Shown: positions 6,001 to 35,309 of the stretch, piece by piece
How positions within the stretch are numbered: the stretch's first letter is position 1
Layout: every line of letters begins with the position of its first letter
Assembly (NCBI GenBank): GCA_041082215.1
Contig: JBDOIF010000066.1
Span: forward strand, 1-35,309
DNA: 35,309 nt
Direction of reading: 5' to 3'
Source of the DNA: Anaerolineae bacterium
GTDB taxonomy: Bacteria; Chloroflexota; Anaerolineae; B4-G1; DUEL01
Translations under genes and position numbers: made by a program
The notes under the pieces: model-generated
Told to the model about the DNA's origin: nothing
Seen by the model: only the letters and a program-made list of their open reading frames with translations
Databases searched by the model: none

Positions 6001-9000
6001 GAAAATGCGCGGGTTGCCCCCCACAGTGGCCAGCCCGCCGCCGTAGGAGGCGGTGTTACTGTAGAAGATGAGGTTCTGGACCGTGGGGCTGAGGGGGGCA
6101 GCGATGTAGAGGCCGCCGCCTGAGATGCCACTACCGCCACGGATCAGGAACCCCTCGACAGTGATGGCGTCGGTGCCGGTGATATAGACGCCCCGTCCCG
6201 CTCCCTGGGGATCGAGGGTGGTGAGGGCGGTGGGGCTGATCCAGTTGGTAAGGGTGTAGCCGCCCCGGAGTGTGAGAGCACCGCTGAGGTAGACGGTCTG
6301 GCTCATGCCTTCCCGTTCCTCCACCCCGGCGCAGTAGCCCGCCACCATGACCAGCCCCGCCGTACCCGCTTCGTCCACTGCCTCCTGGACCGAGGTATAG
6401 ACCCGGCTGGCGCCGGCGATCTGGGCAAAACAGGCGCCGGTGTAGAACTCATAGGCCCCCATGTCGGCGCGGGTGCCGAAGGGACGGGCGTAGCCGTCGT
6501 GGTCCAGCAAGGAGTAGTTATCTGGATCGGCCGTGTCCCGGCAGGGGGAACCGGCCTGGAGGTGGAAGTCCACGCCGGGACTCATAAAGAGGGGATTGGC
6601 GGAGAAAGAGCCTGTTCCGGCAGATGCCCCTCCTCCGTAGTTGCCGCTCCCGTTCCCCCACACATCGCAGTAGGTGCAGGAGACGGAGCCATACAGGCCA
6701 TAGCCGGTGTTGCTGACGACGATGTTGTTGCGTACGGTTGGGGAGCCCAATACACGGCGGATGCCGTTTCCCGTGTTCCCATAGACGGTGTTGTTCTGTA
6801 CCAGCGCGGTGTAGCCGAGATAAATCCCGCCGTTGGCGGTGTTTCCGTAGATCAGGTTGTTCTGAATCGTCGCCTGATCGTTGCTCCCGGTCCAGATACC
6901 CCCTCCGGCCGTACCAGCGGAGTTTCCATAGACCCGGTTTCGCTCGATGGCAGGCCCCGGATTGCCGTCAACGGCTGTAGTGACAGCGATCCCGCCGCCG
7001 TTGGTGGCCGAGTTGTTGAAGAGGACGTTGCCCTGGATCAGCGAGTACTCTCGCGCATAGATGCCGCCCCCGTCCAGACTGGCCGTGTTGCTGCTGATAG
7101 TGTTGTATCGGATCGCCGGTCCGTGGGAGGTATTCCCTTCGGAGTAGATGCCTCCTCCGCCTCTCGTGCCTCCCTGGGATGTATTGCTGTAGATCGTGTT
7201 ATACTCGACCACCGCCCCTGTTGAGAGGAGCCGTACATAAAGGCCACCCCCCTCTCCGTTTGCCACGTTCCTGTAGACGGCGTTCCACCGCACCGTGGCG
7301 GCTGCATCGTAGACGAAGATGCCGCCTCCATAAGTGGACTGATTGCTGTAGACGGTGTTATTCCATACTGTGGCATCAGCTCTTATGCAGATCCCACCGC
7401 CGCCGTCATCCCCCCCGGTGGACCCGTTGGCGTAGATGTCGTTATCGTGCACCAGCGCGCTGGCGTTCCCGATGTACAGGCCGCCGCCGCCGCCGCTGGC
7501 GAAATCGTTGCCCCTGGCGGTGTTGCTGTAAACCCGGTTCCCGTACACCTCGGCAGCGCTGGCGATGTAGACGCCCCCGCCATTGCCGCTGGCCACGTTG
7601 CTATAGATGTCGTTATATCGGATCGTGTGGCGGCCTCCAGCAACGTACAGGCCGCCGCCGTTGTCGGCTATGCCGAAGGAGTCGCCGGTATCGCCGTTAG
7701 AGAGGCGAAACCCCTCCACGGTCACCGGGTTCGGGCTGTTCACGTAGATCACCCGTCCCAGCCCCTGGGCGTCCAGGGTGGTGGGATTCTGGCCTGGGTC
7801 GGGGTCCGACCAGTTGGTGAGGGTATAGCCGCCCTGAAGGGTGAGCCCCTTGCTGATGTAGACGGTCTGGCTGATCCCGGCCCGCACCTCCACCCCCGCG
7901 CAATAGCCGGCCACACGGACGATCCCGCCGTTGCCGGCCGCGTCCACCGCCGCCTGGACAGCGGTGTAGACCCGCCCGGCGTTCACCCGGGCAAAGCAGG
8001 TGCCGGTGTAAAACTCGTGGGCGCCGATGTCGGACCGCTCTCCGAAGGGGCGGGCCCGGCCCTCGTAGTCCAGGCTCACCGTCTGGGTGATCGGCACCTG
8101 GTCTATGCAGGGCGAACCGGCCTGGAGGTGGAAGTCCGCCCCCGGCGGGTCCACCAGGAGCGGGTCGTCGGAGATGCTGTGGCTTCCCGGGGAGACCCCC
8201 ACGTAGTCCTGGTTGAGGTTGCCCCAGACATCGTTGTAATCCAGGAGCGGCGTGCCGCCATAGACGTAGAGGCCACCGCCGGCCGCAGCGGAGTTGCTGA
8301 CCACGATAGTGGCGCTGATCACCGGTGCACCGCTGGCGATGTAGATGCCGCCCCCCTCGCTGCTGGCCTGGTTGCCATAAAGGAGGCTGTGCTGGAGCAG
8401 CGGCGTCCCTCCGGCGATGTAAAGGCCGCCACCCCGTTTGCGGTCTGCCACATTGTTGTAGATGAGGTTGTTCTCCAGCGTCGGCCCGCCCCCCGCGATG
8501 TAGACACCACCGCCGCTGTTACGCGCCGTGTTGCTGTAGACCTGATTGCGGCGCAGGATGGACGTGCCTCCTGCGATGTAGACCCCCGCGCCGTCGGTGA
8601 TGACGTACCCGTTGCGGATGTGGAATCCCTCAACAACGGCAGTGGCCCCCTCTTCGATGTAGACTACCTGGGCACTGCCTTCCCCATCCAGCAGCGTGGG
8701 GTAGCGGGCCGGGTCCGGATAGGACCAGTTGGTGAGGGTGTAGCCTCCCTGGAGGGTGAGGTTCCCGGTGATATGGACGACATGCCCGCTGCTATCGGTA
8801 TCTGTATAGACCCCCTGGGCGACCTTAACGATGCCCCCGGGGGCGACAGCACTCACGGCTGCCTGAACGGAGGTGTAGGGGCAGCCGCTATTGCAGACGG
8901 TGATGACTGCGCTGGCCTGAAATAAAGGAGCGGCAGGGGGAAACCCCTGCCTCTCCTGATCCAGGCCGTAGAGGGCAGCAGGAGGGGGTGCAGCAGGCCC

Positions 9001-9129
9001 CCCGGAGGGAGAGGTCCAGGCTGCATGGACTTCTCCCTGGGGGCCGGCCAGCAGTCCCGAAAGCGTCAATACGCCAACGAGCGCCAATCCCAATGCGAGA
9101 ACAAACCTCCAGACCCCACGCTCAACCAT
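1..9129 (-). CDS. Giant secreted/surface protein, partial (>3043 aa, no stop in window): right-handed parallel beta-helix modules alternating with Ig-like repeats
   Basis: ATG at 9129 after GGAGGGCGGAG; N-terminus MVERGVWRFVLALGLALVGVLTLSGLLAG is signal-like. The same frame reads ...RPVLITGPATVTLAGFHIL at position 1. Repeated GGG(I/L/V)Y and N-x-(I/V)YxN beta-helix motifs; modules end in xFHLxxxSPCI...D(I/M/V)GxxE; nine HxxTNTGxxTDTF-type repeats. Absent from the ORF track because it lacks a stop; the long plus-strand ORFs here are all its antisense frame. Confidence 0.9.
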   Translation of the reverse strand, partial: MVERGVWRFVLALGLALVGVLTLSGLLAGPQGEVHAAWTSPSGGPAAPPPAALYGLDQERQGFPPAAPLFQASAVITVCNSGCPYTSVQAAVSAVAPGGIVKVAQGVYTDTDSSGHVVHITGNLTLQGGYTLTNWSYPDPARYPTLLDGEGSAQVVYIEEGATAVVEGFHIRNGYVITDGAGVYIAGGTSILRRNQVYSNTARNSGGGVYIAGGGPTLENNLIYNNVADRKRGGGLYIAGGTPLLQHSLLYGNQASSEGGGIYIASGAPVISATIVVSNSAAAGGGLYVYGGTPLLDYNDVWGNLNQDYVGVSPGSHSISDDPLLVDPPGADFHLQAGSPCIDQVPITQTVSLDYEGRARPFGERSDIGAHEFYTGTCFARVNAGRVYTAVQAAVDAAGNGGIVRVAGYCAGVEVRAGISQTVYISKGLTLQGGYTLTNWSDPDPGQNPTTLDAQGLGRVIYVNSPNPVTVEGFRLSNGDTGDSFGIADNGGGLYVAGGRHTIRYNDIYSNVASGNGGGVYIASAAEVYGNRVYSNTARGNDFASGGGGGLYIGNASALVHDNDIYANGSTGGDDGGGGICIRADATVWNNTVYSNQSTYGGGIFVYDAAATVRWNAVYRNVANGEGGGLYVRLLSTGAVVEYNTIYSNTSQGGTRGGGGIYSEGNTSHGPAIRYNTISSNTASLDGGGIYAREYSLIQGNVLFNNSATNGGGIAVTTAVDGNPGPAIERNRVYGNSAGTAGGGIWTGSNDQATIQNNLIYGNTANGGIYLGYTALVQNNTVYGNTGNGIRRVLGSPTVRNNIVVSNTGYGLYGSVSCTYCDVWGNGSGNYGGGASAGTGSFSANPLFMSPGVDFHLQAGSPCRDTADPDNYSLLDHDGYARPFGTRADMGAYEFYTGACFAQIAGASRVYTSVQEAVDEAGTAGLVMVAGYCAGVEEREGMSQTVYLSGALTLRGGYTLTNWISPTALTTLDPQGAGRGVYITGTDAITVEGFLIRGGSGISGGGLYIAAPLSPTVQNLIFYSNTASYGGGLATVGGNPRIFNATFVSNTGTVAGGGVYLSGGSPIISNSIFVGNSTGGIWASGATPSLAYNDVWQNQGGGYVGTSPGATDFSTDPLFQDPAGEDFHLRADSPCIHTGDPNTGVTQDVEGDPRPLGRGYDVGADESASYPDVLFTPDRQASGTPGLAVVHIHFLTNTGSVTSSFDLTHSLTVSGTGEWSVAYPPVLTLAPGAGTPVPVTVSVPAGAISGTYALVVLTATSGINPTIYDVVTNTTVVNWNPGVGVTPTYAEHLNPGSVVTYGHTVRNTGNATDTFNVAWTSSRGWTEAVTPTLFANLGPQGTASLWVRVVIPATAPGGLTETTVITLSSPTSGVRTVITDTFESNHTVGDRYVSTLGNDTLNNCRVYTTPCRTIAHAVEQAASGDVVKVAAGVYYEHDLTLNKNVVLRGGYLTTNWERSDPQANPTIIDAQGLGRVLYIFGQPTVEGFTLRGGSTAGSGGGIYIFSLGSPIIRSNIITGNSASIYGGGIYNEQGNAIIDRNVLAFNVADRGGGFASASGQPGFWNNAVYGNMAGSDGGGVYAAGGSPRIWHDTVYDNSAGRGGGVFLAGGSAVVSNSVVVSNTALITGGGIYSQTASARVDYNDVWSNAGGDYAGLDGGPHSISADPLFVNALAANFHLQEGSPCIDRGDRTAVAQDVDGQPRTMGDAPDMGLDEFVRPGVALEPDRAGTGLPGEVLFYTHTVTNTGTYTDTFHLSLSGWGSIVGPSQFALGAGFTRTVQVRVSIPTGALSGTVGTTVLTATSTIHPAVFDTVVDSTTVGLLGGLLLEPDRAREVASAPPETVAVVYTHFLTNTANYTDTFDLTGTSSQGLEVSVAPTVATLGSGVSTTVHVTVTVPAIPTDTVLIDTTLVTATSRTVITLSDTVTDTTCINRRPGVALTPDRTATVPPGQAVTYSHTLTNTGNTTDTFTFTFSSSQRWNVQVPTPQTLGPGLSTTVWVTIPVPAGTLSNTVDTTVVTATSAISPAIAARVVDTTTVRQAPGLLFRRATDCLGLCVTSPPSTTLGYLFVLTNTGNYTDTFDLTGASSQGWGLMLTPPETTLAPAQGTGIIAWLDVPSTTERLTDVTVVTATSRADNSVRDDASYTTRVNWNVSVALEPDRTGNLIVGNTIRYTHTVTNTGEETNTIDLDWSNLDGWKVKVNPSSISNLGPGDTATVEVEVTVPSGITDATNQTVITATTVFYCRALDFAVDTTRVTRPAVTLFPDYNLSGMPGTVVTYTHVLSNSGAVTDTYTLTYSSSLGWSASVTPTTVYSLPPGSATLVTARVTVPMVMSNTSDLLVITATSQYTDTIFDTARDRTTAAYLPGAVLAPDRSGQADAGGFTSYTHTLTNTGNYTDTFYLSTWSEFGNALVEPAMVELGPGEAYSPVVVTVLLPHHAAAGEIEKTEAIVSFAGQQAVALDFTQVNPITGTRYVAPGGTNENNNCTIPIDYGPCATLQHAVDQASSGDEVRVAQGVYTDVHALNGITQVVRVDKSLTLRGGYTPEDWNAPDPVAHPTVLDAGGQGRVVYLIGTEITVTLEGFHLRHGYAGGMDNAGAGLYVAAGVAPTIRWNWIYSNTAAGNESKGGGVYYGGTGSPLIEGNTIYSNTAEDGGGLYLAGGSPQVWNNVLYGNTATKQGGGLYAGGSPQVWNSTLYSNTAEDGGGLYLLGGAPVVSNTIVANNYATATGGGLYQDGGSPALAYNDVWGNVPNNYFGASAGPGSISADPRFTDPTAPDLHLTRASPCINAGDPATPLSQDRDGAPRPQLGGYDIGAYEYGLIGTVHAPAAADPGGLITCTVAVTNVGPFQWTIPVTDPLHPYLDFVSLTSTVGSGEYVTAAHTVSWTGPVAGNSTAYITFTARITDWVAAGTAIANQAWVDHGATDAVTTSVNALPGVRYVAVTGEDTDNNCLMAWRPCRTVQWGADQALAGDEVRVATGTYTDTLGAGQVVSLSTSISLIGGYTSTTWTCNPEAYPTHLDGEGTARPVLITGPATVTLAGFHIL

Positions 9130-17091: not shown

Positions 17092-17466
17092 AAAAAGACT
17101 GACTGTTATCAGGAAGGACCGTTCCCTGAAGGGGAGAGGAGAGGGAGGCTGGTGGACCCCGCGACCGCGGACCGAATGGCCTCCATTTTCAGGGTGCTGG
17201 CCGACCCGACGCGGGTCCGTATCCTTTCCGCCCTGGCGCGATCGGAACTGTGCGTGGGGGAGCTGGCCGCCTGCCTGGAGATGACCGTCTCAGCCATCTC
17301 CCATCAGCTCCGCCTCCTGCGCAGGATGCGGCTGGTGCGCCCCCGCCGCGAGGGAAAGCATGTATACTACGCGCTGGACGATGACCACGTCGAGAAGCTG
17401 TTCCATCAGGCGATGGAGCACGTGGAGGAACAGGTAGAGGATGGAGCAGGGCAAACAGAGCTATGA
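17089..17466 (+). CDS. ArsR/SmtB-family metal-sensing repressor (SmtB/CzrA/ZiaR-like)
   Basis: FRVLADPTRVRIL, ELCVGELA, SAISHQLRLLR, and alpha5 metal site DDDHVEKLFHQAMEHVEE. Confidence 0.93.
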   Translation: MKKTDCYQEGPFPEGERRGRLVDPATADRMASIFRVLADPTRVRILSALARSELCVGELAACLEMTVSAISHQLRLLRRMRLVRPRREGKHVYYALDDDHVEKLFHQAMEHVEEQVEDGAGQTEL

Positions 17467-19663
17467 GGATGCGCGGGGCGAGTTGACTTTCCGCGTGGAC
17501 GGGATGGACTGCGCCGATTGCGCGCTCCATCTGGAACGGGCCGTGGCCCGCCTGGAGGGCGTGGACCGGGTCGAGGTCTCCTTTGCCACGGGACGGATGC
17601 GGCTGGCCGCCCGGGACGCGGCGTCTGTGGTGCCCCGGGTGCGGAGGCTGGCCCGCAGGATGGGATATGAGGCCGTGCCGGATCGCGGGACACAGGCACC
17701 CCCGGCCGGCCTCTGGGCTTTCCTCCGTCGCCATCGGTCCATCTGGCCGTCGGCGGGGGCGGGGCTGCTGTTGCTGACCGCCTTCGCGCTCCGCCTGCTC
17801 GGCGGGCCGGCCCTGGCGGCGGACGGGCTTCTGGTGGCGGCAACGCTGGTCGCCGGCTTTCCCCTGGCCCGCGCGGCGTGGGCCACCCTGCGCTCCGCCC
17901 GCACGGTGGATATGAACGGCCTGATGACCATCGCCGCCGTGGGGGCGCTGGCCATCGGCGAATACGCTGAGGCGGCCGTCGCCACATTTCTGTTCACGGT
18001 GGGGGAGGCGCTGGAGACCTATACGGCCGACCGAGCGCGGGGGGCGGTCCGGGCGCTGATGGACCTCCGGCCCGCCGAGGCGACGCGGCTGACGGAGGCG
18101 GGGGAGGAACGGGTCCCGGTAGAGGCCCTGGCGGTGGGGGACCGGCTCCTGATCCGCCCCGGCGAGCGGGTGCCGGCCGACGGGCGGGTGCTGGAGGGAC
18201 ACTCGGCGCTGAACCAGGCGACCATCACCGGCGAGGGGATGCCGGTGGACAAGGGGCCGGGAGATGAGGTCTTCGCCGGGACGGTGAACGGGGCAGGGGC
18301 GCTGGTCGTCGGGGTGACGCGCGTTGCCGAAGACTCCACCCTGGCCCGCATTGTCCGGCTGGTGACGGAGGCGCAGGAGCAGCGCGCGCCCAGCCAGCGG
18401 TTCGTGGACCGCTTTGCACGCATCTATACCCCGGCGGTGGTGGCTGTGGCGGCGCTGGTGGCCGCGGTCCCTCCGCTGGTGGGGTGGGGGGCGCCGCTCG
18501 ACTGGGTGTACCGGGCGTTGACGCTCCTGGTCATCGCCTGCCCCTGTGCACTGGTCATCTCGACTCCGGTAGCGATGGTGAGCGGCCTGACCGCCGCTGC
18601 GCGGGCGGGGGTGCTGATCAAGGGAGGGGTCCATCTGGAGCAACTGGCCCGGGTTCGCGCCGTCGCCTTCGACAAGACGGGCACCCTCACCCGGGGCGAG
18701 CCGCGACTGGTGGACGGTCAGTGTGCGGACCATGATCCCCGGCTGGCGCCCCGTGAATGCGTGGCCTGCCTGGATATGCTGGCCAAGGCGGCGGCTGTGG
18801 AGCGGCGCTCAGAGCACCCGCTGGCGCAGGCCGTGGTGGAGGCGGCGGATGCGCTGGGGGTAGGCGAGCGGTATCGGCCCGCCGAGGCGGTCGAAGCGGC
18901 TGCGGGCCAGGGCGTGCGGGGCCGGGTGGAAGGGCACGAGGTGGCGGTGGGGAGCCACGCCTTCGTCCACGGAGCGGGCGAGCCAGGGGAGTTCTGCCGT
19001 CTGGTGGAAGCAGCGGCCGCGAACGGGCAGACCGCCGTGGTTGTGGCCGATCTCTGTTGTGGCCAGCGGGCATACGGCCTGATCGCCGACACCCTGCGGG
19101 AGGAGGCCGCCTCTGTCCTGGCCGAGCTGAAGCGGCTGGGAGTGCGACAGACGGTGATGCTCACTGGCGACAACCCGGCCACGGCTGAGGCCGTCGCGCG
19201 GGCGGTGGGAGTGGACGAGGTGCGGGCGGGGTTGCTGCCCCAGGAGAAGGTAGCGGCTGTGGGGGAGCTGCTCGCAGCCTACGGGACAGTAGCGATGGTC
19301 GGGGATGGGGTGAACGACGCCCCGGCGCTGGCCCGGGCCTCTGTCGGCATCGCCATGGGGGCGGCCGGCTCCGACGTGGCGCTGGAGACGGCCGACGTGG
19401 CGCTGATGGGGGATGACCTGAGAGGGCTGCCGGCGGCGGTGCGGATCAGCCGCCGGGCGCTGCGGGCCGTCCGCCAGAACGTCGCCCTGGCCCTGGCGAC
19501 CAAGGGCCTCTTCCTGGCCCTGGCTGTGGCAGGGCTGGCTACCCTCTGGATGGCCGTCTTCGCCGACGTGGGGGTGTCGCTCCTGGTCATCCTCAACGGA
19601 ATGCGGGTGATGGGGCGGGAAAGAGGACTCTCCCGGCAGCATGGTGTAAGTCCCAGCTCTTAA
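17441..19663 (+). CDS. cadA: Heavy-metal-translocating P1B-2 ATPase (Zn/Cd/Pb; ZntA/CadA-like)
   Basis: N-terminal HMA GMDCADC, TGE, CPC, DKTGT, SEHP, MLTGDN, GDGVNDAPALA; the Lys in ALATKG and Asp in AVFADVG fit P1B-2. Confidence 0.93.
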   Translation: MEQGKQSYEDARGELTFRVDGMDCADCALHLERAVARLEGVDRVEVSFATGRMRLAARDAASVVPRVRRLARRMGYEAVPDRGTQAPPAGLWAFLRRHRSIWPSAGAGLLLLTAFALRLLGGPALAADGLLVAATLVAGFPLARAAWATLRSARTVDMNGLMTIAAVGALAIGEYAEAAVATFLFTVGEALETYTADRARGAVRALMDLRPAEATRLTEAGEERVPVEALAVGDRLLIRPGERVPADGRVLEGHSALNQATITGEGMPVDKGPGDEVFAGTVNGAGALVVGVTRVAEDSTLARIVRLVTEAQEQRAPSQRFVDRFARIYTPAVVAVAALVAAVPPLVGWGAPLDWVYRALTLLVIACPCALVISTPVAMVSGLTAAARAGVLIKGGVHLEQLARVRAVAFDKTGTLTRGEPRLVDGQCADHDPRLAPRECVACLDMLAKAAAVERRSEHPLAQAVVEAADALGVGERYRPAEAVEAAAGQGVRGRVEGHEVAVGSHAFVHGAGEPGEFCRLVEAAAANGQTAVVVADLCCGQRAYGLIADTLREEAASVLAELKRLGVRQTVMLTGDNPATAEAVARAVGVDEVRAGLLPQEKVAAVGELLAAYGTVAMVGDGVNDAPALARASVGIAMGAAGSDVALETADVALMGDDLRGLPAAVRISRRALRAVRQNVALALATKGLFLALAVAGLATLWMAVFADVGVSLLVILNGMRVMGRERGLSRQHGVSPSS

Positions 19664-19688: not shown

Positions 19689-19718
19689 TTGACAAAACCC
19701 CTCAACCGGTAGTATAAT
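19689..19718 (+). promoter_or_regulatory. Consensus sigma70 promoter of the PadR-fusion gene
   Basis: TTGACA-18 bp-TATAAT. Confidence 0.75.
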
Positions 19719-19857
19719 TTCACGAGAACGCTGAGGACGCTGAGAATGCTTCGTGCCCCTGTGCCCTCCGTGCCTTTCTGGTTCTTCGCCTGAGCGGTAA
19801 AGAATGGGGGCCGAAGGGACGCCGGATACCTTCTGTTGGAACACCCTTGGAGGGGGA

Positions 19858-21324
19858 ATGCTGACAAAAAACGACGTCCTGGTTCTCGGGCTGCTGCTCG
19901 ATCGGCCGATGCACGGCTATGAGATCGGTCAGCTCATCAAGAGCGAGGGCATTGACCAGTGGATGGACGTCAGCGTGCCCGCGGTCTATTATTCCCTCAA
20001 CAAATTGCATCGTCTGGGCTATCTCTCCGCTGCCCGTTCCCGCCTGGGCGGAGTCGAGAAAAGCGTCTATCACCTCACCGAGATGGGGCGTCAGGCCTTC
20101 CTTGAGAGCATGGAGGGGATCCTTGGCTCTGAGGAGCCGGTCCGTTTCGACATTGATCTGGGGATTTTCCTCCTGAGCCGTTTCCCTCAGGACCGGGCCG
20201 TTGATCTTTTGGGGAAGCGGCTGTCGTTTCTCCGCCAGCGCTCCGCCGAGCTGGAAAAGCGCATTCAGAAAGCGCAGAGCAGCGGCGAGTTGCTCCGGGC
20301 TGCCATTCTCGAGCACAGCGCTGCATGTACCCGTATGGAGTCGGAGTGGCTGGATGGGATCATCCAGCGGCTGCGGGGTGAGGGGCGGGAAGTGGAGGGG
20401 GAAGCCGGACTGGTACGGCTTGTCGGCGACCTGCGCGACTTCCACCTCCCCGGCCTGATCAGGTTGATCGTTACAGGCAGGCTGAGCGGCACTCTTGTCG
20501 TCACCGATGGCATCTTCACCCGCACCCTTACTTTCCAGGAGGGCCGTCCCGTCTGCGCTACTTCCCGGCGACCGGAGGGGGAGGTGCGCGATCCGGGGCA
20601 GATTCTGAACGACATCTACGACCTTTTTCGCTGGCAGGAGGGAGCGTTTACCTTCGACCAGCAGGTGGCGGCCCAGGAAGGCTGCCTGGTACTGCAGTTA
20701 AGCCCGGAGAGCCTCATCCTGAACGGGGTCCGGTGGGTGGACAATTGGGCCGTCATCCAGCGCGTCATTCCGTCGGCAGATGTGGTCTTCGAACGGCGGG
20801 AGGGTGTGCAGTGCCCCACCGACCTGGAGCTGACCGAGGAGGAATGCCAGGTGCTGGGGGCGGTTGACGGGGTACGGGACGTATCCGACGTGGCCCGGAA
20901 ATGTGGCCTCACCGAGTTCGAGACCAGCAAGGTCCTCTACGGCCTCCACGCCGTCGGCCTGGTCCAGCCGGGCGATCTGGAAAAAATCCGCCTGCGCCGC
21001 CTCTTCCGGGAGTTTGCCGAACTGATGTGCCAGTCTACCAAACCCTACCGGGCTGGCCCCGACGACTTTTCCTGCGAGGAAGCGATCAACCAGCGGTGTG
21101 CCGACCTCCCGGTCCTGTTTGTCCGCAGCCGGGTTGAGGATCGGACCGATCCCAGCTTGCGGACGGAGGAGCTGGTTGAGATTTACCGCCGGTTTCTCCA
21201 AACACAGATCGCCGTGGTCCGGGAACGGTTCGGCAAAGAGGTCGCCGGGAAGCTCGTCCAGCAGGTGCTGGCCCAGATCAATCCCAGCCTTCGATCCGTT
21301 CTGGAACGTTACAGCCTCGCTTGA
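19858..21324 (+). CDS. PadR-family regulator fused to a DUF4388 (PatA_N-like) domain and C-terminal helical domains (488 aa)
   Basis: ATG at 19858 after GGAGGGGG. LGLLLDRPMHGYEI...SVPAVYYSLNKL...YHLTEMG is a PadR wHTH; GDLRDFHLPGLIRLI...SGTLVV...FQEGRPVCA...WQEGAFTF resembles DUF4388. Confidence 0.8.
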   Translation: MLTKNDVLVLGLLLDRPMHGYEIGQLIKSEGIDQWMDVSVPAVYYSLNKLHRLGYLSAARSRLGGVEKSVYHLTEMGRQAFLESMEGILGSEEPVRFDIDLGIFLLSRFPQDRAVDLLGKRLSFLRQRSAELEKRIQKAQSSGELLRAAILEHSAACTRMESEWLDGIIQRLRGEGREVEGEAGLVRLVGDLRDFHLPGLIRLIVTGRLSGTLVVTDGIFTRTLTFQEGRPVCATSRRPEGEVRDPGQILNDIYDLFRWQEGAFTFDQQVAAQEGCLVLQLSPESLILNGVRWVDNWAVIQRVIPSADVVFERREGVQCPTDLELTEEECQVLGAVDGVRDVSDVARKCGLTEFETSKVLYGLHAVGLVQPGDLEKIRLRRLFREFAELMCQSTKPYRAGPDDFSCEEAINQRCADLPVLFVRSRVEDRTDPSLRTEELVEIYRRFLQTQIAVVRERFGKEVAGKLVQQVLAQINPSLRSVLERYSLA

Positions 21325-21438: not shown

Positions 21439-21467
21439 TTGACAACTACTGCAATCCATAGTATAAT
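21439..21467 (+). promoter_or_regulatory. Consensus sigma70 promoter of the cytochrome/rhodanese operon
   Basis: TTGACA-17 bp-TATAAT; RBS GAGGAGG before the ATG at 21536. Confidence 0.82.
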
Positions 21468-21535
21468 TTTACTATAGATACAGGAATAAATATTCAACCC
21501 TGAATACTATTGGATTCTCTTTTTGAGGAGGCAGG

Positions 21536-22192
21536 ATGGATAGATCCACGCTCTCCCGCCGCCGATTTCTGGGGCTGGCGGCTGCTGGCGCCGCGGCTGC
21601 TTTGGGCCTGCCGTTGTTGAGGGACATCCCCTCCGTTGCGGAGGGGCGCCCTGGTGCCCGCTATGCCCTGGTGATTGACACCACCAGGTGCACGGGCTGC
21701 GGGGCGTGTATCGAGGCCTGCCGCCTGCGTAACCATCTCCCCGAAGGGGTCAGTTACATCCGCCGCATCGTCAAGGGGAACAGCCGCAACCCCTGGTTCC
21801 TGATGATCCAGTGCCAGCACTGTGCCAACCCCCCCTGCGCCACCGTCTGCCCCACCAACGCCACCTACCGGCGGGAGGACGGGGTGGTGCTCATTGACGA
21901 GCGGCTCTGCGTGGGCTGCAGGTACTGCATGCAGGCCTGCCCCTATCAGGCCCGCGTCTTTGACGAGGAGCGGGGGGTGGCTGATAAGTGCTGGCTCTGC
22001 CTCCCCTGGGTCCTGGGCGGGGGGCTTCCGGCCTGCGTGGAGGCCTGCATCCCCGGCGCCCGCTTCTTCGGCCGCGCCGACGACCCCAGTAGCGGGGTCG
22101 CCCAACTGATCGCCTCGGGCCGGGCCAAACCTCTCCATCCCGAATTTGGCACCGAGCCATCTATCCTGTCCTACATCATTGAAGAAGAGTGA
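21536..22192 (+). CDS. Tat-exported 4Fe-4S ferredoxin-type subunit (NrfC/PsrB/TtrB-like)
   Basis: SRRRFL twin-arginine signal; CTGCGACIEAC, CQHCANPPCATVCP, CVGCRYCMQACP, KCWLC...PACVEAC. Confidence 0.92.
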   Translation: MDRSTLSRRRFLGLAAAGAAAALGLPLLRDIPSVAEGRPGARYALVIDTTRCTGCGACIEACRLRNHLPEGVSYIRRIVKGNSRNPWFLMIQCQHCANPPCATVCPTNATYRREDGVVLIDERLCVGCRYCMQACPYQARVFDEERGVADKCWLCLPWVLGGGLPACVEACIPGARFFGRADDPSSGVAQLIASGRAKPLHPEFGTEPSILSYIIEEE

Positions 22193-22200
22193 GGTGGTCC

Positions 22201-23172
22201 ATGCAGACAGCCTGGGGCTGGCTTCCGGCCATTTACCTCTTCCTGGGCGGCATGGGCGCAGGCGCGCTGATGGTCGCCGCCACCTTTGAGTTCTACGGCA
22301 AGCGCTACCAGTACGACTTCTGCCCCACCGCCCTGGTGGGTGCCACCGTCTCCGGCCCCCTGGTCATCCTGGGCACGATCCTGCTCATCTTTGACCTGGG
22401 GGCTGGCCTGCGGGAGCCCTGGCGCATCCTCTATATGTTCACCCACTTTTCCTCGGTGATGACCTGGGGCGTCTGGCTCCTCACCCTCTTCATCCCGGTC
22501 TCCATGGTCTACGGCTTCCTGGAATACCTGGACTCCTTCCCGGCGGCGCGGGAGTGGCTGAGGGCCCGACAGTGGCTGGGCTGGACGAAGTTCCTCTGGA
22601 TCCTCCCCCTCCGCCGGACCAAGCGGGTCTTCGCCGGAATCGGCGTGGTGCTGGCCGTCGGTGTTGCCATTTATACGGGCATCCTGCTCAGCGCCGTGGG
22701 GCCGGCCATCCCCTTCTGGTCCACCCGCGTCCTGCCCTTCATCCCCATCCCGATGATGCCGGTCCTCTTCCTGGTCTCCGCCCTCTCCACCGGCCTGGGG
22801 CTGACGGTGGACCTGGCGGCGACGCTGGCGGTCGGCCCGATGGAGCAGCGGGTAAAGAGTTTGCCCTGGATTCATATGGCCTTCATCGGCGTGGAGACGC
22901 TCCTTCTGGGGATGCTCCTCATCACCGCGCTGGTGGACGGCGGCTCGGCGGCTCAATCGGCCCGGGAGATTATCGCGGGCAGCCATGCTGTCGTCTTCTG
23001 GGTGCTCATCGTGATCCCCGGCTTCATCTTCCCCTTCGTCGTCCACGCCTACGCAGCCGGGCTGGGGCGTCACTCTCTGGTCTCCGGCGTGGGTTCCGGG
23101 ATCGGCATCGTCGTCGCCGGATTGTTCCTGCGCTACCTGATCCTGGTCAGCGGCATCCCCGCCGCCTTGTAA
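22201..23172 (+). CDS. nrfD: NrfD/PsrC-family quinol-interacting membrane anchor
   Basis: Probable ATG at 22201 after GAGGTGG; WGWLPAIYLFLGGMGAG, LIFDLG, SSVMTWG, YTGILLS, PFW, LFLVSALSTG, LFLRY. Confidence 0.9.
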   Translation: MQTAWGWLPAIYLFLGGMGAGALMVAATFEFYGKRYQYDFCPTALVGATVSGPLVILGTILLIFDLGAGLREPWRILYMFTHFSSVMTWGVWLLTLFIPVSMVYGFLEYLDSFPAAREWLRARQWLGWTKFLWILPLRRTKRVFAGIGVVLAVGVAIYTGILLSAVGPAIPFWSTRVLPFIPIPMMPVLFLVSALSTGLGLTVDLAATLAVGPMEQRVKSLPWIHMAFIGVETLLLGMLLITALVDGGSAAQSAREIIAGSHAVVFWVLIVIPGFIFPFVVHAYAAGLGRHSLVSGVGSGIGIVVAGLFLRYLILVSGIPAAL

Positions 23173-23182
23173 GGAGACGCCA

Positions 23183-24064
23183 ATGTTACCTGCCCACTGG
23201 CCCAAATGGACGGTCATCCTCATCGGCCTGGCGCTGGCAGTTTTCACCATCCTGCTGGCGCTGGTGCTGGAGCCGGCGGCTCAGGCGCTGATGCCAAAAC
23301 CTACCCCCATTTCCACCCCGCCGCTCCTTCCTTACGCCGCACCCCAATCCCGCGAATGTATCCTCTGCCACACGGACGAGGCGGCTCTGGGCCAGACCGT
23401 ATCCGATGTTGAGGAGCTGGGGCGGCTCTGGATTGACCCGGCGGACGTCATCTCGGTCCACGGTCGGTTGGGCTGCGTCACCTGCCATCGGGGGAGCGGC
23501 GGCACGACCGACCTGGCTGCTGCCCATCAGGGGTTGGTGAAGGACCCCACGCTGCATTTTGAGGAGGAATGCCTCCTTTGTCACCGGAACCTGCCGGACG
23601 AGATCCCCGACGACCGGCTGCGCACGCCCCACTCCTCGGTGGTCCACGGCCAGGCGCAGGGAGTGACCTGCAGCGATTGCCACGGTGGGGTGGGGCACGG
23701 TTTTGACCCGGTTTCCGGCAAAGTGACCTGCTCCATGCACGTCTGCCTGGAGTGTCACCAGGCCCGCGGTCTGAGCGCCGAGCTACAGGGTTGCAACGCC
23801 TGCCACATCGGCCCGCATGATGTCTCGGCGGCCCTTTCCTGCAGCGACTGCCACACCTCCACCGAGCGCTGGAACGAGACCCATCTGGCGGTCCATCCGG
23901 TGGAACTGGTGGGATGGCATGCGCAGATAGATTGCTTTGACTGCCACGACTGGCCGAACTTCAGCGGCCTTCGCTACGTCTGTAGCGACTGCCACCAGCG
24001 TCCCCACGACTTCGGGAGCGATAATTGCGAGGAGTGCCATAGCCCGGAGGGGTGGGGCAAGTAG
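23183..24064 (+). CDS. Membrane-anchored decaheme c-type cytochrome (293 aa)
   Basis: N-terminal hydrophobic helix, Pro-rich linker and ten CxxCH motifs; RBS AAGGAG. Confidence 0.92.
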   Translation: MLPAHWPKWTVILIGLALAVFTILLALVLEPAAQALMPKPTPISTPPLLPYAAPQSRECILCHTDEAALGQTVSDVEELGRLWIDPADVISVHGRLGCVTCHRGSGGTTDLAAAHQGLVKDPTLHFEEECLLCHRNLPDEIPDDRLRTPHSSVVHGQAQGVTCSDCHGGVGHGFDPVSGKVTCSMHVCLECHQARGLSAELQGCNACHIGPHDVSAALSCSDCHTSTERWNETHLAVHPVELVGWHAQIDCFDCHDWPNFSGLRYVCSDCHQRPHDFGSDNCEECHSPEGWGK

Positions 24065-24125
24065 AGCAGGATTGCAAAATCAAGAAGGCGAAAGCCGATA
24101 AAATCTCAACAGGAGGAACTGAAGA

Positions 24126-25190
24126 ATGAAGCGTTCGCTCTATCCCATACTGGTCGCAATGACCATCGTCGCTACGCTGCTGGCGGGCTGTGCACAGCCC
24201 ACGCCGGCCCCCACGGCAACGCCGATGCCGCCGACGGCGACCCCTGTCCCGCCAACGGCAACGCCGGTGCCGCCCACGCCGACACCAGAACCCACTCCGG
24301 TGCCCGCTTCCGTCGTCATCCTGGATGCCGCAGCGTCCTACTTCACCGAGGGGATGAAGCTGATCGGCGCCGATGCGGTCTACGAGAACCTCAACGACGG
24401 CGATGCGTCCAACGACCCGATCATCATTGATATCCGCAGGCCGGAGGACTACGCCCTGGGGCACATCACGGGCGCGGTCAACATCGGCGCGGGCGCGCTC
24501 TTCGCCCCGGAGACGCTGGCGAAGCTGGACCCCGACCGTCAGATCGTCGTCTACTGCTACACCGGGCAGGCTTCAGGGCAGGTGGTGGCGGCGCTGAACA
24601 TGCTGGGCTACGACGCCTACAGCCTCAGGTTCGGCATGCCCTCCTGGGCGCTGGTGGAGGGAGTCTCCGCTGGCCCCTGGAAGGATAGCATGAGCCAGGG
24701 TTACCCTGTGGATATGGAGCCTGCCGATCTGGCCGGCAACTACCCCGCGCCGGAGCCTCCGGGGACGGACATAGCCTCTGCCGCGCTGGCCTACTTCACC
24801 GAGGGGATGAAGCTGATCGGCGCCGATGCGGTCTACGAGAACCTCAACGACGGCGACGCGTCCAACGACCCGATCATCATTGATATCCGCAAGCCGGAGG
24901 ACTATGCCCTGGGCCACATCACGGGTGCGGTCCACATCGGCGTGGGTGGCATCTTCAATCCGGAGACGCTGGCGAAGCTGGACCCCGACCGTCAGATCGT
25001 CGTCTACTGCTACACCGGGCAGGCTTCAGGGCAGGTGGTGGCGGCGCTGAACATGCTGGGCTACGATGCCTACAGCCTCAGGTTCGGCATGCCCTCCTGG
25101 GCGCTGGTGGAGGGAGTCTCCACACCTCCGTGGAACGACGAGATGACTCTGGGCTATCCGGTGGATATGGAGCCTCACGAGTTGCCGTAA
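24126..25190 (+). CDS. Lipoprotein with two tandem rhodanese (sulfurtransferase) domains
   Basis: Lipobox LLAGC, PTATP linker, two copies of IIDIR.PEDYALGHITGAV and the active-site loop VVYCYTGQ. Confidence 0.92.
   Translation: MKRSLYPILVAMTIVATLLAGCAQPTPAPTATPMPPTATPVPPTATPVPPTPTPEPTPVPASVVILDAAASYFTEGMKLIGADAVYENLNDGDASNDPIIIDIRRPEDYALGHITGAVNIGAGALFAPETLAKLDPDRQIVVYCYTGQASGQVVAALNMLGYDAYSLRFGMPSWALVEGVSAGPWKDSMSQGYPVDMEPADLAGNYPAPEPPGTDIASAALAYFTEGMKLIGADAVYENLNDGDASNDPIIIDIRKPEDYALGHITGAVHIGVGGIFNPETLAKLDPDRQIVVYCYTGQASGQVVAALNMLGYDAYSLRFGMPSWALVEGVSTPPWNDEMTLGYPVDMEPHELP
24337..25121 (+). repeat. 332-bp intragenic direct repeat (24337-24668 and 24790-25121)
   Basis: Offset 453 bp; about 15 mismatches by manual count (~95% identity). 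Confidence 0.93.
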
Positions 25191-25203
25191 TCCCGGGGAG
25201 GGG

Positions 25204-25239
25204 AGAGCCTCCCGCAGGTTGACCCCTGCGGGAGGCTCT
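25204..25239. other. Perfect 15-bp intergenic stem-loop
   Basis: AGAGCCTCCCGCAGG-ttgacc-CCTGCGGGAGGCTCT; no U-tract on the plus strand. Confidence 0.8.
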
Positions 25240-25259
25240 ATCTCACCGAAGGAGGTCCG

Positions 25260-26648
25260 ATGCGGACAAAGGGGATCTGGCTGTTTCTCAGCGGCCTGCT
25301 GGGGCTGGTTCTGGCTGGCTGTCTGGCCCGGCCCGAAATCACCCCCCTGCCGCCCAGCCCGATGCTCCCGGCCGTCCCCACCCGCGCAGCGACCCCGATA
25401 CCCTCTACGGAAACCCCCGCCCCACAGGCCGATAGCAGTACCTGTATCGCCTGCCACACCGACGAGGAGACGCTGAAGGCGCTGGCCGTGGAGCCGGAGG
25501 AGGCCGAACACCTCTCCGAGGGGGAGGGCTGAGGGGGGTCGTTGCCTCCGGTGGAGGCTTGGGAGAAGGTCTTCTTAGATGACCAGGCGCTGGGCAGGGT
25601 GCATGCCGAACTGGGCTGCATCGCCTGCCATGGCGGCGTCGGGGGTGTCACGGATATGGCCGCCGCTCACGAGGGGGTGGTGCGCGACCCCGACCCGGCC
25701 CAGACCTGCGCGTCCTGCCACCAGGAGACGGTGCAGACCTACGGCGACAGCCTCCATGTGACGCTGGCTGGCTACTACACGGTGCTTCAGATGCGGAGCG
25801 ACGAGGAGCACTGGCCCCAGTTGATGGTCGCCTTCGATAACCACTGTGATGACTGCCATGCTTCCTGTGGTCAGTGCCACGTAAGCCGGCCCACGATCAA
25901 CGAGGGGGGCCTGCTGGCGCAGCACGAGTTCAAACAACTTCCCCCGATGAACCTGACCTGCACCGGATGCCACGGCAGCCGCGTCAACGACGAGTATAAG
26001 GGCAAGAACCAGACCGCCGACGGCGAGAAGGTCCCTGCCGACGTCCACTTCAACCCCGGCGGCATGGCCTGCTTTGCCTGCCACAGCGGGGACCAGATGC
26101 ACGGTGCGCTGGGAGTGGAGGATCACCGGTACGACGGCCCGCCCACTCCGTCCTGCACCCAGGAGGGCTGTCACGAGGAGATCGGGCCAGGGGACGGGAT
26201 CGCTTACCACACTGAGGAGCACATCGCCAGGGTGCAGTGCCAGGTCTGCCACGCGGCCCCCTACAAGCACTGTTACAACTGCCACGTCCAGCTCTCTGAT
26301 GAGGGCGTCCCGTTCTTCCGGACAGAACCCTCGGAGATCTTCCTCAGGATCGGGCGCAACCCCATCCAGAGCCCGGACCGGCCGTGGGAGTATGTGCTGG
26401 TGCGGCATGTGCCGGTGGCGCGGGATACCTTCGCCTACTACGGCGAGAACCTGCTAGCCAACTTCGATGCGCGGGAGACCTGGACCTACGCCACGCCCCA
26501 CACCATCCAGCGGCGCACCCCGCAGACGGCGTCCTGTGATTCCTGCCACGGCAACGCGGAGCTGTTCCTGACGGAAGCGTTCGTCCGCCAGCGGACGCCG
26601 GACGAGGTGGAGGCGAACCGCCGGGTTATCGTAGAGGAGGTTCCCTAG
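25260..26648 (+). CDS. Putative selenocysteine-containing multiheme c-type cytochrome lipoprotein (462 aa; Sec at codon 91, TGA 25530-25532)
   Basis: ORFs 25260-25532 and 25542-26648 are in frame: SEGEG-TGA-GGSLPPVEAWEK. The lipobox LAGC lies only in the first part. Ten CxxCH plus one CX4CH in total. SECIS-like hairpin downstream; homology to the neighbouring decaheme spans the TGA. Confidence 0.82.
25533..25558 (+). promoter_or_regulatory. Candidate bacterial SECIS element of the cytochrome
   Basis: GCCTCC-GGT-GGAGGC hairpin (25544-25558); the G-initiated loop starts 18 nt after the UGA. Confidence 0.68.
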
Positions 26649-26669
26649 AGGGGCGTAACGAAAATAGAG

Positions 26670-26707
26670 CAAAGCGGCGCGTCCTCTTGCAGAGACACGC
26701 CGCTTTG
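26670..26707. terminator. Probable bidirectional intrinsic terminator
   Basis: CAAAGCGGCG...CGCCGCTTTG inverted repeat between convergent genes, with short A/T flanks. Confidence 0.68.
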
Positions 26708-32438: not shown

Positions 32439-35309
32439 ATGAAAATCAGTCGTAGAGAATTCCTCAAGCTGACGGCTGCGGCCAGCGGGAGCCTGCTCTT
32501 CCCGACCTCCCCGACCCTGGCGACCACCGAAGGGCCGGTCTTCCCGCTCCACAAGAAGGTCAAGGAGGCGGTCACCATCTGCCCCTACTGCTCCTGCGGC
32601 TGCGGCCTGATCATCGCTACCGGGCCGGACGGCCACATCGTCAACTCCGAGGGCGACCCCGATAACATCACCAACCGGGGCGCTCTGGACCCCAAGTCCA
32701 TCGCCGTCCGGCAGCTCTCCCAGAGCCCCCTCCGCCTCAAGAAGCCCCTCTACCGGGCTCCCGGCGCCAGCGAGTGGCAGGAGGTGGAGTGGGACTGGGC
32801 CATCACGGAAGTCGCCAAACGGATCAAGGCCACCCGGGACGCCACCTTTGAGCGCACCAATGCCGACGGCGTCACCGTCAACCGCACCATGGGCCTGGCC
32901 TTCCTGGGCGGCGCGGCCAACAACTCCGAGGAGTGCTACCTGGCGACCAAACTGGCCCGCGCCCTGGGTATCGTCTACCTGGAACATCAGGCCCGTATAT
33001 GACACTCCGCGACAGTGGCCGGTCTGGCCCCAACATACGGTCGCGGAGCAATGACCAACCACTGGGTGGACCTCAAGAACGCCGACTACATCCTCGTCAT
33101 CGGCTCCAACTGCGCGGAGAACCACCCGGCCTCGATGACCTGGATCCACAAGGCGATGAACGAGCGCGAGGCCAAACTGATCGTCGTGGACCCCCGCTTC
33201 ACCCGCACCGCCTCCCAGGCCCACCTCTACGCCCCGATCCGCCCGGGCACCGACATCGCCTTCTTCGGCGGGATGATCAAGTATATCCTGGATAATGAAC
33301 TCTACCACAAGGATTATGTGGTCTACTACACCAACGCTGCCAACCTGATCAACCCCGACTACAAAGGCCCGGACGAACTGGACGGCCTCTTCTCCGGCTA
33401 CGACCCGGAGAAACGGCGCTACGACCGCTCCACCTGGTCCTACCAGACCGGTGAGGACGGGAAGCCCCTGCGGGACGAGACGCTCCAGGACCCCCACTGC
33501 GTCTTCCAGATTATGAAGCGCCACTACGCCCGCTACGACCTGGATACCGTCTCCGGCGTGACGGGCATCCCCAAGGACCTGCTGGAGAAAATCTACAGGA
33601 CCTACGCCGAATCGGGCCAGGTGGGCAAGGCCGGCACCATCCTCTACGCGATGGGTCAGACGCAGCACACCGTGGGCTCCCAGAACGTGCGCGTCCTGGC
33701 CATCGTCCAGTTGCTCCTGGGCAACATCGGCATCCCCGGCGGCGGCGTCAACGCCCTGCGCGGCGAGTCCAACGTCCAGGGCTCCACGGATGTCGGCCTC
33801 CTGGCCCACATCCTGCCCGGCTACCTGCCCATCCCCACGACGGCGGACGTGGACCTCAAGACCTACATTGAGAACAAGACCAAGCCGGGCGGCGCCTGGT
33901 CCGGCGGCTACTGGGCCAACGGCCCCAAGTTCCTTATCAGCCTGCTCCGGGCCTGGTGGGGCCCTTACGCCGTCCAGCGCACCGACTTCGCCTACCAGTA
34001 CCTGCCCAAGGTGGATAGCGCCGCCAACCATTACTGGATCGCCCTCTTTGAGGCGATGTATGCCGGGAAGATCAAGGGCCTCTGGATTATGGGCATGAAC
34101 CCGGCCGTCGGCGGCCCCAACGCCCGCTTTGAGCGGGAGGCGCTGAAGCGGCTGGAGTGGATGGTGGTCCAGGAAATCTTTGATACCGAGACCACCTCCT
34201 TCTGGCGCGCGCCGGGCGAGGACCCCTCCCAGATTCAGACCGAGGTCTTTGTCCTCCCCGCCGCCGACGCGATGGAGAAGGCCGGCAGCATCGTCACCAG
34301 CGGGCGGCTCATCCAGTGGCGGGAGAAAGTCGCTGAGGCCCCGGGCGAGGCGAAGCCCGACCACCAGATCATCAACCTCATCGCGCTCAAACTCAAGGAA
34401 CTCTACGCCGCCGACCCCGGCCCCTTCCCGCAGCCCATCCTGCACCTGGTCTGGGACTACGGGCAGGAACTGGACATTGAGAAGGTGGCGCGGGAGATGA
34501 ACGGCTACGCGGTCAAGGACGTGAAGGACGCCCAGGGCAACGTCCTGGCGAAGAAGGACGCCACGCTGACCACCTTCGCCCACCTGCAGGCCGACGGCTC
34601 CACCGCCTGCGGCGTCTGGATTTACACCGGCTACTTCTCGCTCCAGCCGGACGGGTTCGGCAACATGCTCCCGGCGGCGAAGCGGCGCAACTCCGTCTAC
34701 GACCCCGGCGGCTACGGCAACTACCCGTACTGGGGCTGGGCCTGGCCGGCCAACCGCCGCATCGTCTACAACCGCTGCTCCGCCGACCCCGACGGCAAGC
34801 CCTGGTCGGAGGACCGTAAGTACATCTGGTGGGACGAGGCCCAGAAGAAGTGGGTCGGCTACGACGTACCCGACTTCGTCGTCACCCGCGCGCCCACCGA
34901 CCCCGGCGGTCGCGACCCCTTCATCATGCGCACCGACGGCAAGGGCGGCCTCTTCGCCGCGATGAACGAAGGTCCTCTGCCCGAGCACTATGAGCCGGTG
35001 GAGTCGCCGGTGAAGAACGTCTTCTCCAGCCAGCAGATCAACCCGGTGGTCAAGGTCTGGAAGACGGATGAGGGGAAGGACATCGGCGACAACTGGGGCA
35101 CGCCCGATAAATTCCCCATCGTCGCCACCACCTACCGGCTGGTGGAGCACTGGCAGGCGGGCGGTATGTCCCGCTGGCTGGACTGGCTGGTGGAGGCGCA
35201 GCCGGAGATGTTCGTGGAGATGAGCCAGGAACTGGCCGCCGAGAAGGGCATCAAGAGCGGGGACCGGGTGAAGGTCCGCTCCGCCCGCGGGGAGATTGAG
35301 GCCATCGCC
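32439..35309 (+). CDS. fdnG: Formate dehydrogenase-N-type alpha subunit, selenocysteine-containing (Sec188, TGA 33000-33002), partial at 3' end
   Basis: Tat signal SRREFLK; CPYCSCGC; EHQARI-TGA-HSATVAGLAPTYGRGAMTNHW; AENHP, VVDPRFTRTA, IRPGTDIAF, ALRGESNVQG, PEHYEP, TTYRLVEHW. The frame stays open to the window end. Confidence 0.96.
33003..33048 (+). promoter_or_regulatory. SECIS element of fdnG
   Basis: Apical GGCC-GGTCT-GGCC (33017-33029, loop starts 19 nt after the UGA) on a lower stem CTCCGCGAC/GTCGCGGAG. Confidence 0.8.

Follow-up and report, generated by a model that had tools for sequence, protein, structure and literature searches.

A selenocysteine-containing undecahaem cytochrome and its rhodanese partner suggest a quinol-linked sulfane sulfur reductase in an Anaerolineae genome

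The stretch of DNA analyzed here, hereafter the window, spans 35,309 nucleotides of an Anaerolineae bacterium (Chloroflexota; assembly GCA_041082215.1, contig JBDOIF010000066.1). Five genes, all on the plus strand, lie inside 21439-26707 and make up an operon ending in a multihaem cytochrome c gene with an in-frame TGA, whose product is referred to below as the selenocytochrome. An initial annotation, made from the sequence alone, had described these genes as a promoter-to-terminator unit for sulfur or selenium respiration; the positions agree with ours, and the open reading frames, Pfam matches and haem and cysteine motifs bear out both the operon and the identities of its five genes. The elements are the following.

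21439..21467, plus strand: sigma-70-like promoter, TTGACA-17-TATAAT, matching the consensus at 12/12 positions, in an AT-rich spacer
21536..22192, plus strand: nrfC, four-cluster Fe-S protein exported by twin-arginine translocation (Tat), 218 aa (PF13247, E 1e-24)
22189..23172, plus strand: nrfD, NrfD-type membrane quinol/quinone subunit, 327 aa (PF03916, E 5e-35)
23183..24064, plus strand: membrane-anchored decahaem cytochrome c, 293 aa, with 10 CXXCH motifs and an N-terminal hydrophobic anchor
24126..25190, plus strand: double-rhodanese lipoprotein, 354 aa (PF00581 twice, E 5e-38; lipobox LLAGC)
25260..26648, plus strand: eleven-haem selenocysteine (Sec) lipoprotein cytochrome, 462 aa, U91, translated with TGA as U
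25530..25532, plus strand: UGA selenocysteine codon in the motif SEGEG-U-GG, the sole in-frame TGA of the selenocytochrome gene
25543..25559, plus strand: hairpin resembling a selenocysteine insertion sequence (SECIS), with a GCCUCC/GGAGGC stem and a G/U-containing loop (RNAalifold, 20 loci)
26670..26707, no strand assigned: 15-bp G+C-rich hairpin between convergent genes (terminator scan)

The first two genes overlap by 4 nt, and this translationally coupled pair has the make-up of an NrfCD-type quinol dehydrogenase module. The nrfC product carries an RRRFL Tat signal and 16 cysteines forming four Fe-S motifs; its top NCBIfam models are DsrO, TtrB and NrfC, every score being under the model cut-off. 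Between the promoter and the hairpin, the list of open reading frames and Pfam contain no molybdopterin gene and no porin-like gene, as had been claimed. The promoter of the proposed transcription unit also stands, with its 12/12 match, but the terminator needs a qualification: the hairpin exists, yet the scan scores it for the convergent minus-strand gene, with the T-run on the minus strand, and it could serve the operon only as a bidirectional terminator. Rfam at gathering thresholds gave no match anywhere in the window, and ARAGORN detected no tRNA in it.

A scan of species-representative genomes yielded 47 related loci, one of which (L062, 27% identity) is an unrelated match; the other 46 form the working family set. 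A TGA occupies the homologous position in 46 of the 47, within the motif (S)EGEG-U-GG and with conserved flanks on both sides. A conserved six-pair hairpin starts 13 nt past the UGA, with compensatory double changes in three of the six pairs (RNAalifold, 20 loci), and the codons of this region are nearly fixed across phyla; a single-sequence fold of the same region is no better than shuffles (z 0.06). The genome encodes complete Sec machinery, with selA, selB, selD and tRNA-Sec all above cut-offs. Given its retention in 46 of 47 loci, the conserved hairpin behind it and the complete machinery, we conclude that the TGA codes for selenocysteine, in line with the Sec-containing multihaem lipoprotein of the initial annotation. 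No Cys-containing form was found at this position among the 46 loci. The co-occurrence with sel genes that had been proposed as a check is likewise seen: in a 301-genome phylum sample the selenocytochrome gene is present in nine genomes including the source (10 of 10 full matches have one TGA), and selB is present in all nine. This co-occurrence is weak evidence, since 218 of the 301 genomes have selB above its cut-off, a tally that counts five unpublished genomes, all cytochrome-negative. The selD gene of the source genome (G000 C139:20928-21848) carries an in-frame TGA of its own.

Public protein collections hold 936 clusters of relatives at E<=1e-5, from 7,999 candidates scored. Among the best 120, 104 are about 354-388 aa long and start past the TGA; annotation therefore routinely truncates the family. 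One near-full-length entry (P0066) has W at the Sec position, from which we infer a TGA read as Trp.

The rhodanese neighbor of the selenocytochrome is conserved too. In 42 of the 46 loci the selenocytochrome gene has between one and three same-strand rhodanese genes beside it (tblastn and Pfam), and in a metagenome-assembled genome of the Desulfobacterales (L059) two rhodanese domains are fused to the selenocytochrome C-terminus. This brings the loci with an adjoining or fused rhodanese to 43 of 46; they belong to Chloroflexota, Actinomycetota, Bacillota and Thermodesulfobacteriota. The three other loci are L031, L055 and L022, the last with only 144 nt of upstream DNA. In the window, the rhodanese lipoprotein has a Pro/Thr linker and two domains, each with its catalytic Cys in a six-residue CYTGQA loop. 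Across 20 aligned partner rhodaneses these cysteines, C144 and C295, never vary and lie in a CY[TS]G[QH] loop; the domains are also matched by the GlpE and PspE models. Judged by this conservation, the core of the system is the pair of rhodanese and selenocytochrome.

The two rhodanese domains of the window are encoded by a 300-nt direct repeat (24326-24625 and 24779-25078, 94% identity) and are far more alike than the domain pairs of more distant relatives, which suggests a recent duplication or gene conversion.

The genes that could feed electrons to this pair are more variable. NrfC, NrfD and a multihaem cytochrome are linked in 14 loci, mainly of one Anaerolineae/Thermoflexales clade; together with the rhodanese this is the neighbourhood conservation that the initial annotation had proposed to look for. 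The order nrfC-nrfD-multihaem recurs upstream in 11 loci and in a contig-cut one (L048); in L049 and L051 these genes lie downstream, and L051 has the additional cytochrome and the selenocytochrome as one fused protein. Elsewhere the feeder is a Tat Fe-S protein with a cytochrome b561 (L055) or a cytochrome b with multihaem cytochromes (L058 and L061), and ResB/CcsA maturation genes are found in the Bacillota loci. For a quick maximum-likelihood tree we used 35 of the 46 loci and the window, omitting near-duplicates (L018, L020, L021, L024, L040), broken or short genes (L041, L047, L060, L061) and contig-cut ones (L044, L045). Every row labelled as NrfCD-upstream sits in one 15-row clade (SH-aLRT 98), with an Actinomycetota clade as sister. 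Varying feeders around a constant core pair are what a terminal enzyme that can exchange its electron sources would be expected to show.

A molybdopterin subunit is absent both from the window operon and from the 14 related NrfCD-linked operons. The initial annotation had allowed that a molybdenum (Mo) subunit encoded elsewhere might be the obligate partner, and this was not borne out. The genome encodes five molybdopterin enzymes, two of FdhA type, two Sec-containing ones of FdnG type and one TtrA-like, and two NrfD genes. The second NrfD gene, on the 2-kb contig C103, is flanked by an Fe-S gene and by the N-terminal Fe4S4 domain of a molybdoenzyme; because it sits between these, it is taken as that molybdoenzyme's own partner. 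The TtrA-like gene starts at the edge of contig C9, apparently continuing from C103. With four of the five enzymes being formate dehydrogenases and the TtrA-like one having its own Fe-S and NrfD genes, we rejected a missing Mo partner. The TtrA-like operon itself (Fe-S protein, NrfD, catalytic subunit), apparently split between C103 and C9 (L071, L070), possibly gives the genome a reductase of tetrathionate or thiosulfate type.

The selenocytochrome has ten CXXCH motifs and one CX4CH, all eleven of which are invariant in the family alignment. Only ten non-motif histidines are conserved against these eleven motifs, and one haem is therefore left without a conserved His partner. Outside the haem motifs and the lipobox the alignment has no conserved Cys, and because no free Cys besides that of the lipobox is present, Sec is the only candidate nucleophile. 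The CXXCK and CX15CH active-site haem motifs are absent from the protein. The N-terminal part of the decahaem cytochrome is paralogous to the N-terminal three-haem region of the selenocytochrome (35% identity over 146 residues, E 2e-17), with a 19-residue gap exactly at the Sec loop, which sits just past the first haem motif; given this gap, the Sec loop appears as a specific addition to the catalytic subunit.

Two features of the haem complement vary among relatives. The eighth haem site (26154-26174, residues 299-305) is CX4CH (CTQEGCH) in the source clade and a plain CXXCH in the relatives from Actinomycetota, Dehalococcoidales and Bacillota. P0035, P0068 and L051:2315-4813, like many relatives, have a C-terminal extension with more haem motifs and a terminal membrane helix, so that the presumed catalytic cytochrome and the relay are joined in one protein.

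Neither of two families with which the protein might be grouped accommodates it. One is MccSep (ExtKL), a pentahaem selenoprotein of Geobacter shown to be a reductase of polysulfide and, less strongly, of selenite (Mihara et al., 2026; PMC13510729); the other is octahaem tetrathionate reductase (OTR). By hmmscan at E<=0.01 the selenocytochrome matches neither NF040886 (MccSep/ExtKL; cut-off 250 bits) nor TIGR04315 (OTR; cut-off 375 bits). In whole-genome searches at E<=1, NF040886 matches only C61 and C10, not the selenocytochrome gene, and TIGR04315 only C10, so that membership in either family was ruled out. A family profile weakly matches the unnamed cytochrome c 28pb_A (3e-7), hydroxylamine oxidoreductases (HAO; about 2e-5), NrfA (0.005) and ONR (0.009), and from the HAO, NrfA and ONR matches the selenocytochrome was placed in the broad HAO/NrfA superfamily. 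A single-sequence search against PDB sequences returned nothing meaningful, and the Protein Atlas only generic "multihaem cytochrome" clusters.

An AlphaFold2 model of the selenocytochrome, built with 36 sequences, has a mean predicted local distance difference test (pLDDT) score of 66.4, and the Sec loop falls below 50. In an exhaustive structural scan (VIA-align) with this query (pLDDT 66), the Shewanella OTR structure 1sp3_A was found at Z 8.2 (root-mean-square deviation 5.1 over 248 residues, model positions 145-462), and the next row at Z 3.1. The modelled fold may resemble that of OTR; Foldseek against the PDB gave no match at E<=0.001.

On balance we favor, with a probability of about 0.58, the reading that the operon encodes an extracytoplasmic, quinol-linked reductase of sulfane sulfur or a closely related chalcogen. 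The substrate could be polysulfide or persulfide, possibly tetrathionate or selenite. NrfD would oxidize menaquinol in the membrane, and the Tat-exported four-cluster NrfC would receive the electrons at the outer face. The anchored decahaem cytochrome would pass them on to the eleven-haem lipoprotein, the presumed catalytic subunit, in which Sec 91 would be the only non-haem chalcogen nucleophile. The double-rhodanese lipoprotein may bind the substrate, in the form of a Cys-persulfide or polysulfide, and present it through a putative contact with the Sec loop. Sec91 would then attack the S-S (or S-Se) bond, the haem chain would reduce the Se-S adduct and sulfide would be released.

Several points weigh against this reading. 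The selenocytochrome model has the low pLDDT values given above, particularly in the Sec loop, and Foldseek found it no counterpart in the PDB. The analogy with MccSep is functional only, because no sequence relationship is detectable. Electron transfer from menaquinol to polysulfide is uphill by the redox potentials, which favors tetrathionate, selenite or a different direction. No rhodanese lies near the selenocytochrome gene in L031 and L055, and the Actinomycetota loci (the L034-L047 group) have no recognizable linked feeder. In L055, from a Chloroflexota metagenome-assembled genome (601-4075, minus strand), the selenocytochrome gene is followed by those for the Tat Fe-S protein and the cytochrome b561 and is adjoined by divergent genes. 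The latter encode an Rrf2 regulator, a pyridoxal phosphate-dependent enzyme (PF00291), a protein of hexapeptide/serine-acetyltransferase-like type and one that is AIR-synthase-like and possibly SelD-like; they hint at assimilation rather than respiration.

A bolder version of the reductase reading, which we offer tentatively and regard as unlikely, would make Sec 91 the distal axial ligand of the haem that lacks a His partner. This His/selenolate haem c would swap sulfur with the rhodanese persulfide in trans, and the pair would make up a new enzyme class for sulfur or selenium respiration, with an origin separate from that of MccSep and now found in four or more phyla. To our knowledge, a His/selenolate-ligated haem c is a cofactor state not known in nature.

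The same parts run backwards would make an oxidase of thiosulfate, sulfide or persulfide, in which the rhodanese gathers sulfane sulfur, the Sec/haem site oxidizes it and NrfCD hands the electrons arriving over the haem wire to quinone. NrfD-type modules are bidirectional in Qrc and ACIII, and rhodaneses take thiosulfate as a donor, in keeping with the GlpE and PspE matches of the domains. We consider this unlikely, as the characterized precedent for Sec with a rhodanese is a reductase, OTR as the best fold match is presumably one too, and the annotated loci show no linked genes for Sox, Sqr or oxidases; it would fit, though, with the comparison that the MccSep authors draw between the chemistry of their enzyme and the reverse of TsdA and SoxAX (PMC13510729).

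A reductase of selenite or tellurite, for detoxification or selenide supply and with the rhodanese carrying perselenide, appears decidedly unlikely. MccSep does reduce selenite, with an apparent K0.5 of 0.99 mM (PMC13510729), and the Geobacter ext cluster has been tied to selenite and tellurite reduction (Jahan et al., 2018; PMC5877670). NCBIfam gives weak matches to ExtM (E 0.0025) and ExtS (E 0.0017), which are named "selenite/tellurite reduction operon" proteins, but both are far under their cut-offs. The possibly SelD-like gene and two Cys-synthesis-like neighbors of L055 would also suit such a role, yet neighbors of this assimilation type occur in that one locus only, and a family of 936 protein clusters would be large for a substrate as rare as selenite.

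Two large multihaem cytochromes at the outer face, fed by NrfCD, could also form a general extracellular electron conduit to Fe(III), Mn(IV) or humics in a cell without an outer membrane, the Sec and the rhodanese being accessory. The structural scan does contain a row for 6qvm_A, the S-layer undecahaem cytochrome of Carboxydothermus ferrireducens, but its Z of 3.1 is within noise, and we think a conduit very improbable, since it leaves the invariant Sec, the rhodanese partner in 43 of 46 loci and the L059 fusion unexplained. That the TGA is a true stop, so that the locus holds either a pseudogene or two genes, for a monohaem lipoprotein of 90 aa and a decahaem protein of 368 aa, is almost certainly wrong even though gene callers split the gene there and most of the best relatives begin after it, because the part after the TGA lacks a signal peptide and could start only at a TTG, and because conservation runs continuously across the TGA in 46 loci, next to the SECIS-like hairpin and with complete Sec machinery in the genome.

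Two neighboring genes of the window bear on the context of the operon.

19804..21324, plus strand: PadR + DUF4388 regulator (Pfam PF03551, PF14332), with its own 12/12 promoter at 19689-19718
32439-35309 and past the window end, plus strand: alpha subunit of a Tat-exported formate dehydrogenase-N (FdnG; TIGR01553, 1136 bits), with an in-frame TGA, U188

A homolog of the regulator lies upstream of nrfC in nine related loci and is divergent in all nine; in the window the regulator is instead co-directional with the operon, which suggests a local inversion with adjacency retained. Directly upstream of it, at 17441-19663, is a heavy-metal P-type ATPase with an HMA domain. As for the formate dehydrogenase, which the initial annotation had named as a possible electron source, opposite-strand genes separate it from the operon and FdnG occurs in none of the 47 related loci, so that the link is not conserved. 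A near-identical second FdnG copy is found on contig C37. At the other end of the window, a 3,043-codon open frame on the minus strand (1-9129) runs past the window start, and the large plus-strand open frames opposite it, at 7-8925, have no Pfam match.

Up to 2026, the enzymes known to respire sulfur were for the most part molybdoenzymes. The selenocytochrome points to a second multihaem selenoprotein family, unrelated to MccSep, that follows the same logic of Sec, haems and a rhodanese carrier. Its protein clusters number in the hundreds and come from uncultured Chloroflexota, Actinomycetota, Bacillota and others. As annotation almost always cuts the gene at the UGA, genome-based inventories of the sulfur cycle would fail to see it as one complete enzyme. 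Full-text literature searches, the supplementary tables of the MccSep paper aside, found no paper on the rhodanese-selenocytochrome family. The Thermoflexales version has the most complete wiring so far, from quinol to Sec in one transcription unit, and is therefore a natural starting point for biochemistry.

Among known systems, PsrABC, PhsABC and TtrABC are molybdoenzymes with NrfC- and NrfD-type partners, and Wolinella Sud is a rhodanese-type polysulfide carrier that feeds its reductase. The operon shares with these the NrfC/NrfD-type partners and a putative rhodanese-type carrier; it differs in that the molybdopterin catalytic subunit found there is absent here and in the 14 relatives.

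Closer in layout are E. coli NrfABCD and MccACD/SirACD, which are Mo-free and combine NrfD and NrfC with a relay of multihaem type and, as the catalytic subunit, a multihaem cytochrome from the HAO/NrfA superfamily, the group to which the weak HAO, NrfA and ONR profile matches also lead. Given these systems, the Mo-free NrfCD-multihaem arrangement, one part of what the initial annotation had put forward as a candidate new module, is not new by itself. They differ from the operon in its Sec, its rhodanese partner, the lack of CXXCK or CX15CH and the membrane tethering of both cytochromes.

OTR of Shewanella oneidensis (PDB 1sp3, TIGR04315), the only clear structural match of the selenocytochrome model, is a multihaem enzyme that we take to be a reductase cleaving an S-S bond. 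It has eight haems against the eleven here, where an extra N-terminal module of two haems and the Sec loop is present together with the rhodanese partner. Sec-containing members of the OTR family appear in the table of a 2026 review of prokaryotic selenoproteins, which has three cytochrome entries, ExtKL, the GSU2204 family and the OTR-family octahaem proteins (PMC13188914).

The closest functional parallel is MccSep (ExtKL, GSU2937-2936), which is likewise an exported multihaem cytochrome c with one Sec, essential in its case, encoded beside a rhodanese lipoprotein. MccSep uses U325 beside a Cys-ligated haem and is required for respiration of elemental sulfur (S0) (PMC13510729). The Geobacter ext cluster comprises the rhodanese ExtH, the porin ExtI, ExtJ, ExtKL, ExtQ and ExtS, together with the 12-haem ExtM, the 10-haem ExtN, the Rieske protein ExtO and the cytochrome b ExtP (PMC5877670). 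Its 10- and 12-haem cytochromes and membrane quinol module correspond in kind to the decahaem cytochrome and NrfCD here, with the difference that the Geobacter cluster has a Rieske/cytochrome b module and a porin and the operon has NrfCD and no porin. The catalytic proteins differ further in haem number (five in MccSep, eleven here), in the Sec position (a C-terminal D-G-U-P loop in MccSep, an N-terminal GEG-U-GG loop here) and in the haem-ligating Cys, of which none is conserved here. The likeness to Geobacter extHIJKL drawn in the initial annotation was apt and has gained weight, as ExtKL is now a shown Sec-dependent polysulfide reductase (PMC13510729), although the selenocytochrome is not an ExtKL homolog. 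The initial interpretation is thus partly supported and largely right in outline, and what is new at the locus is not the Mo-free NrfCD layout but the pairing of a selenocytochrome with a rhodanese.

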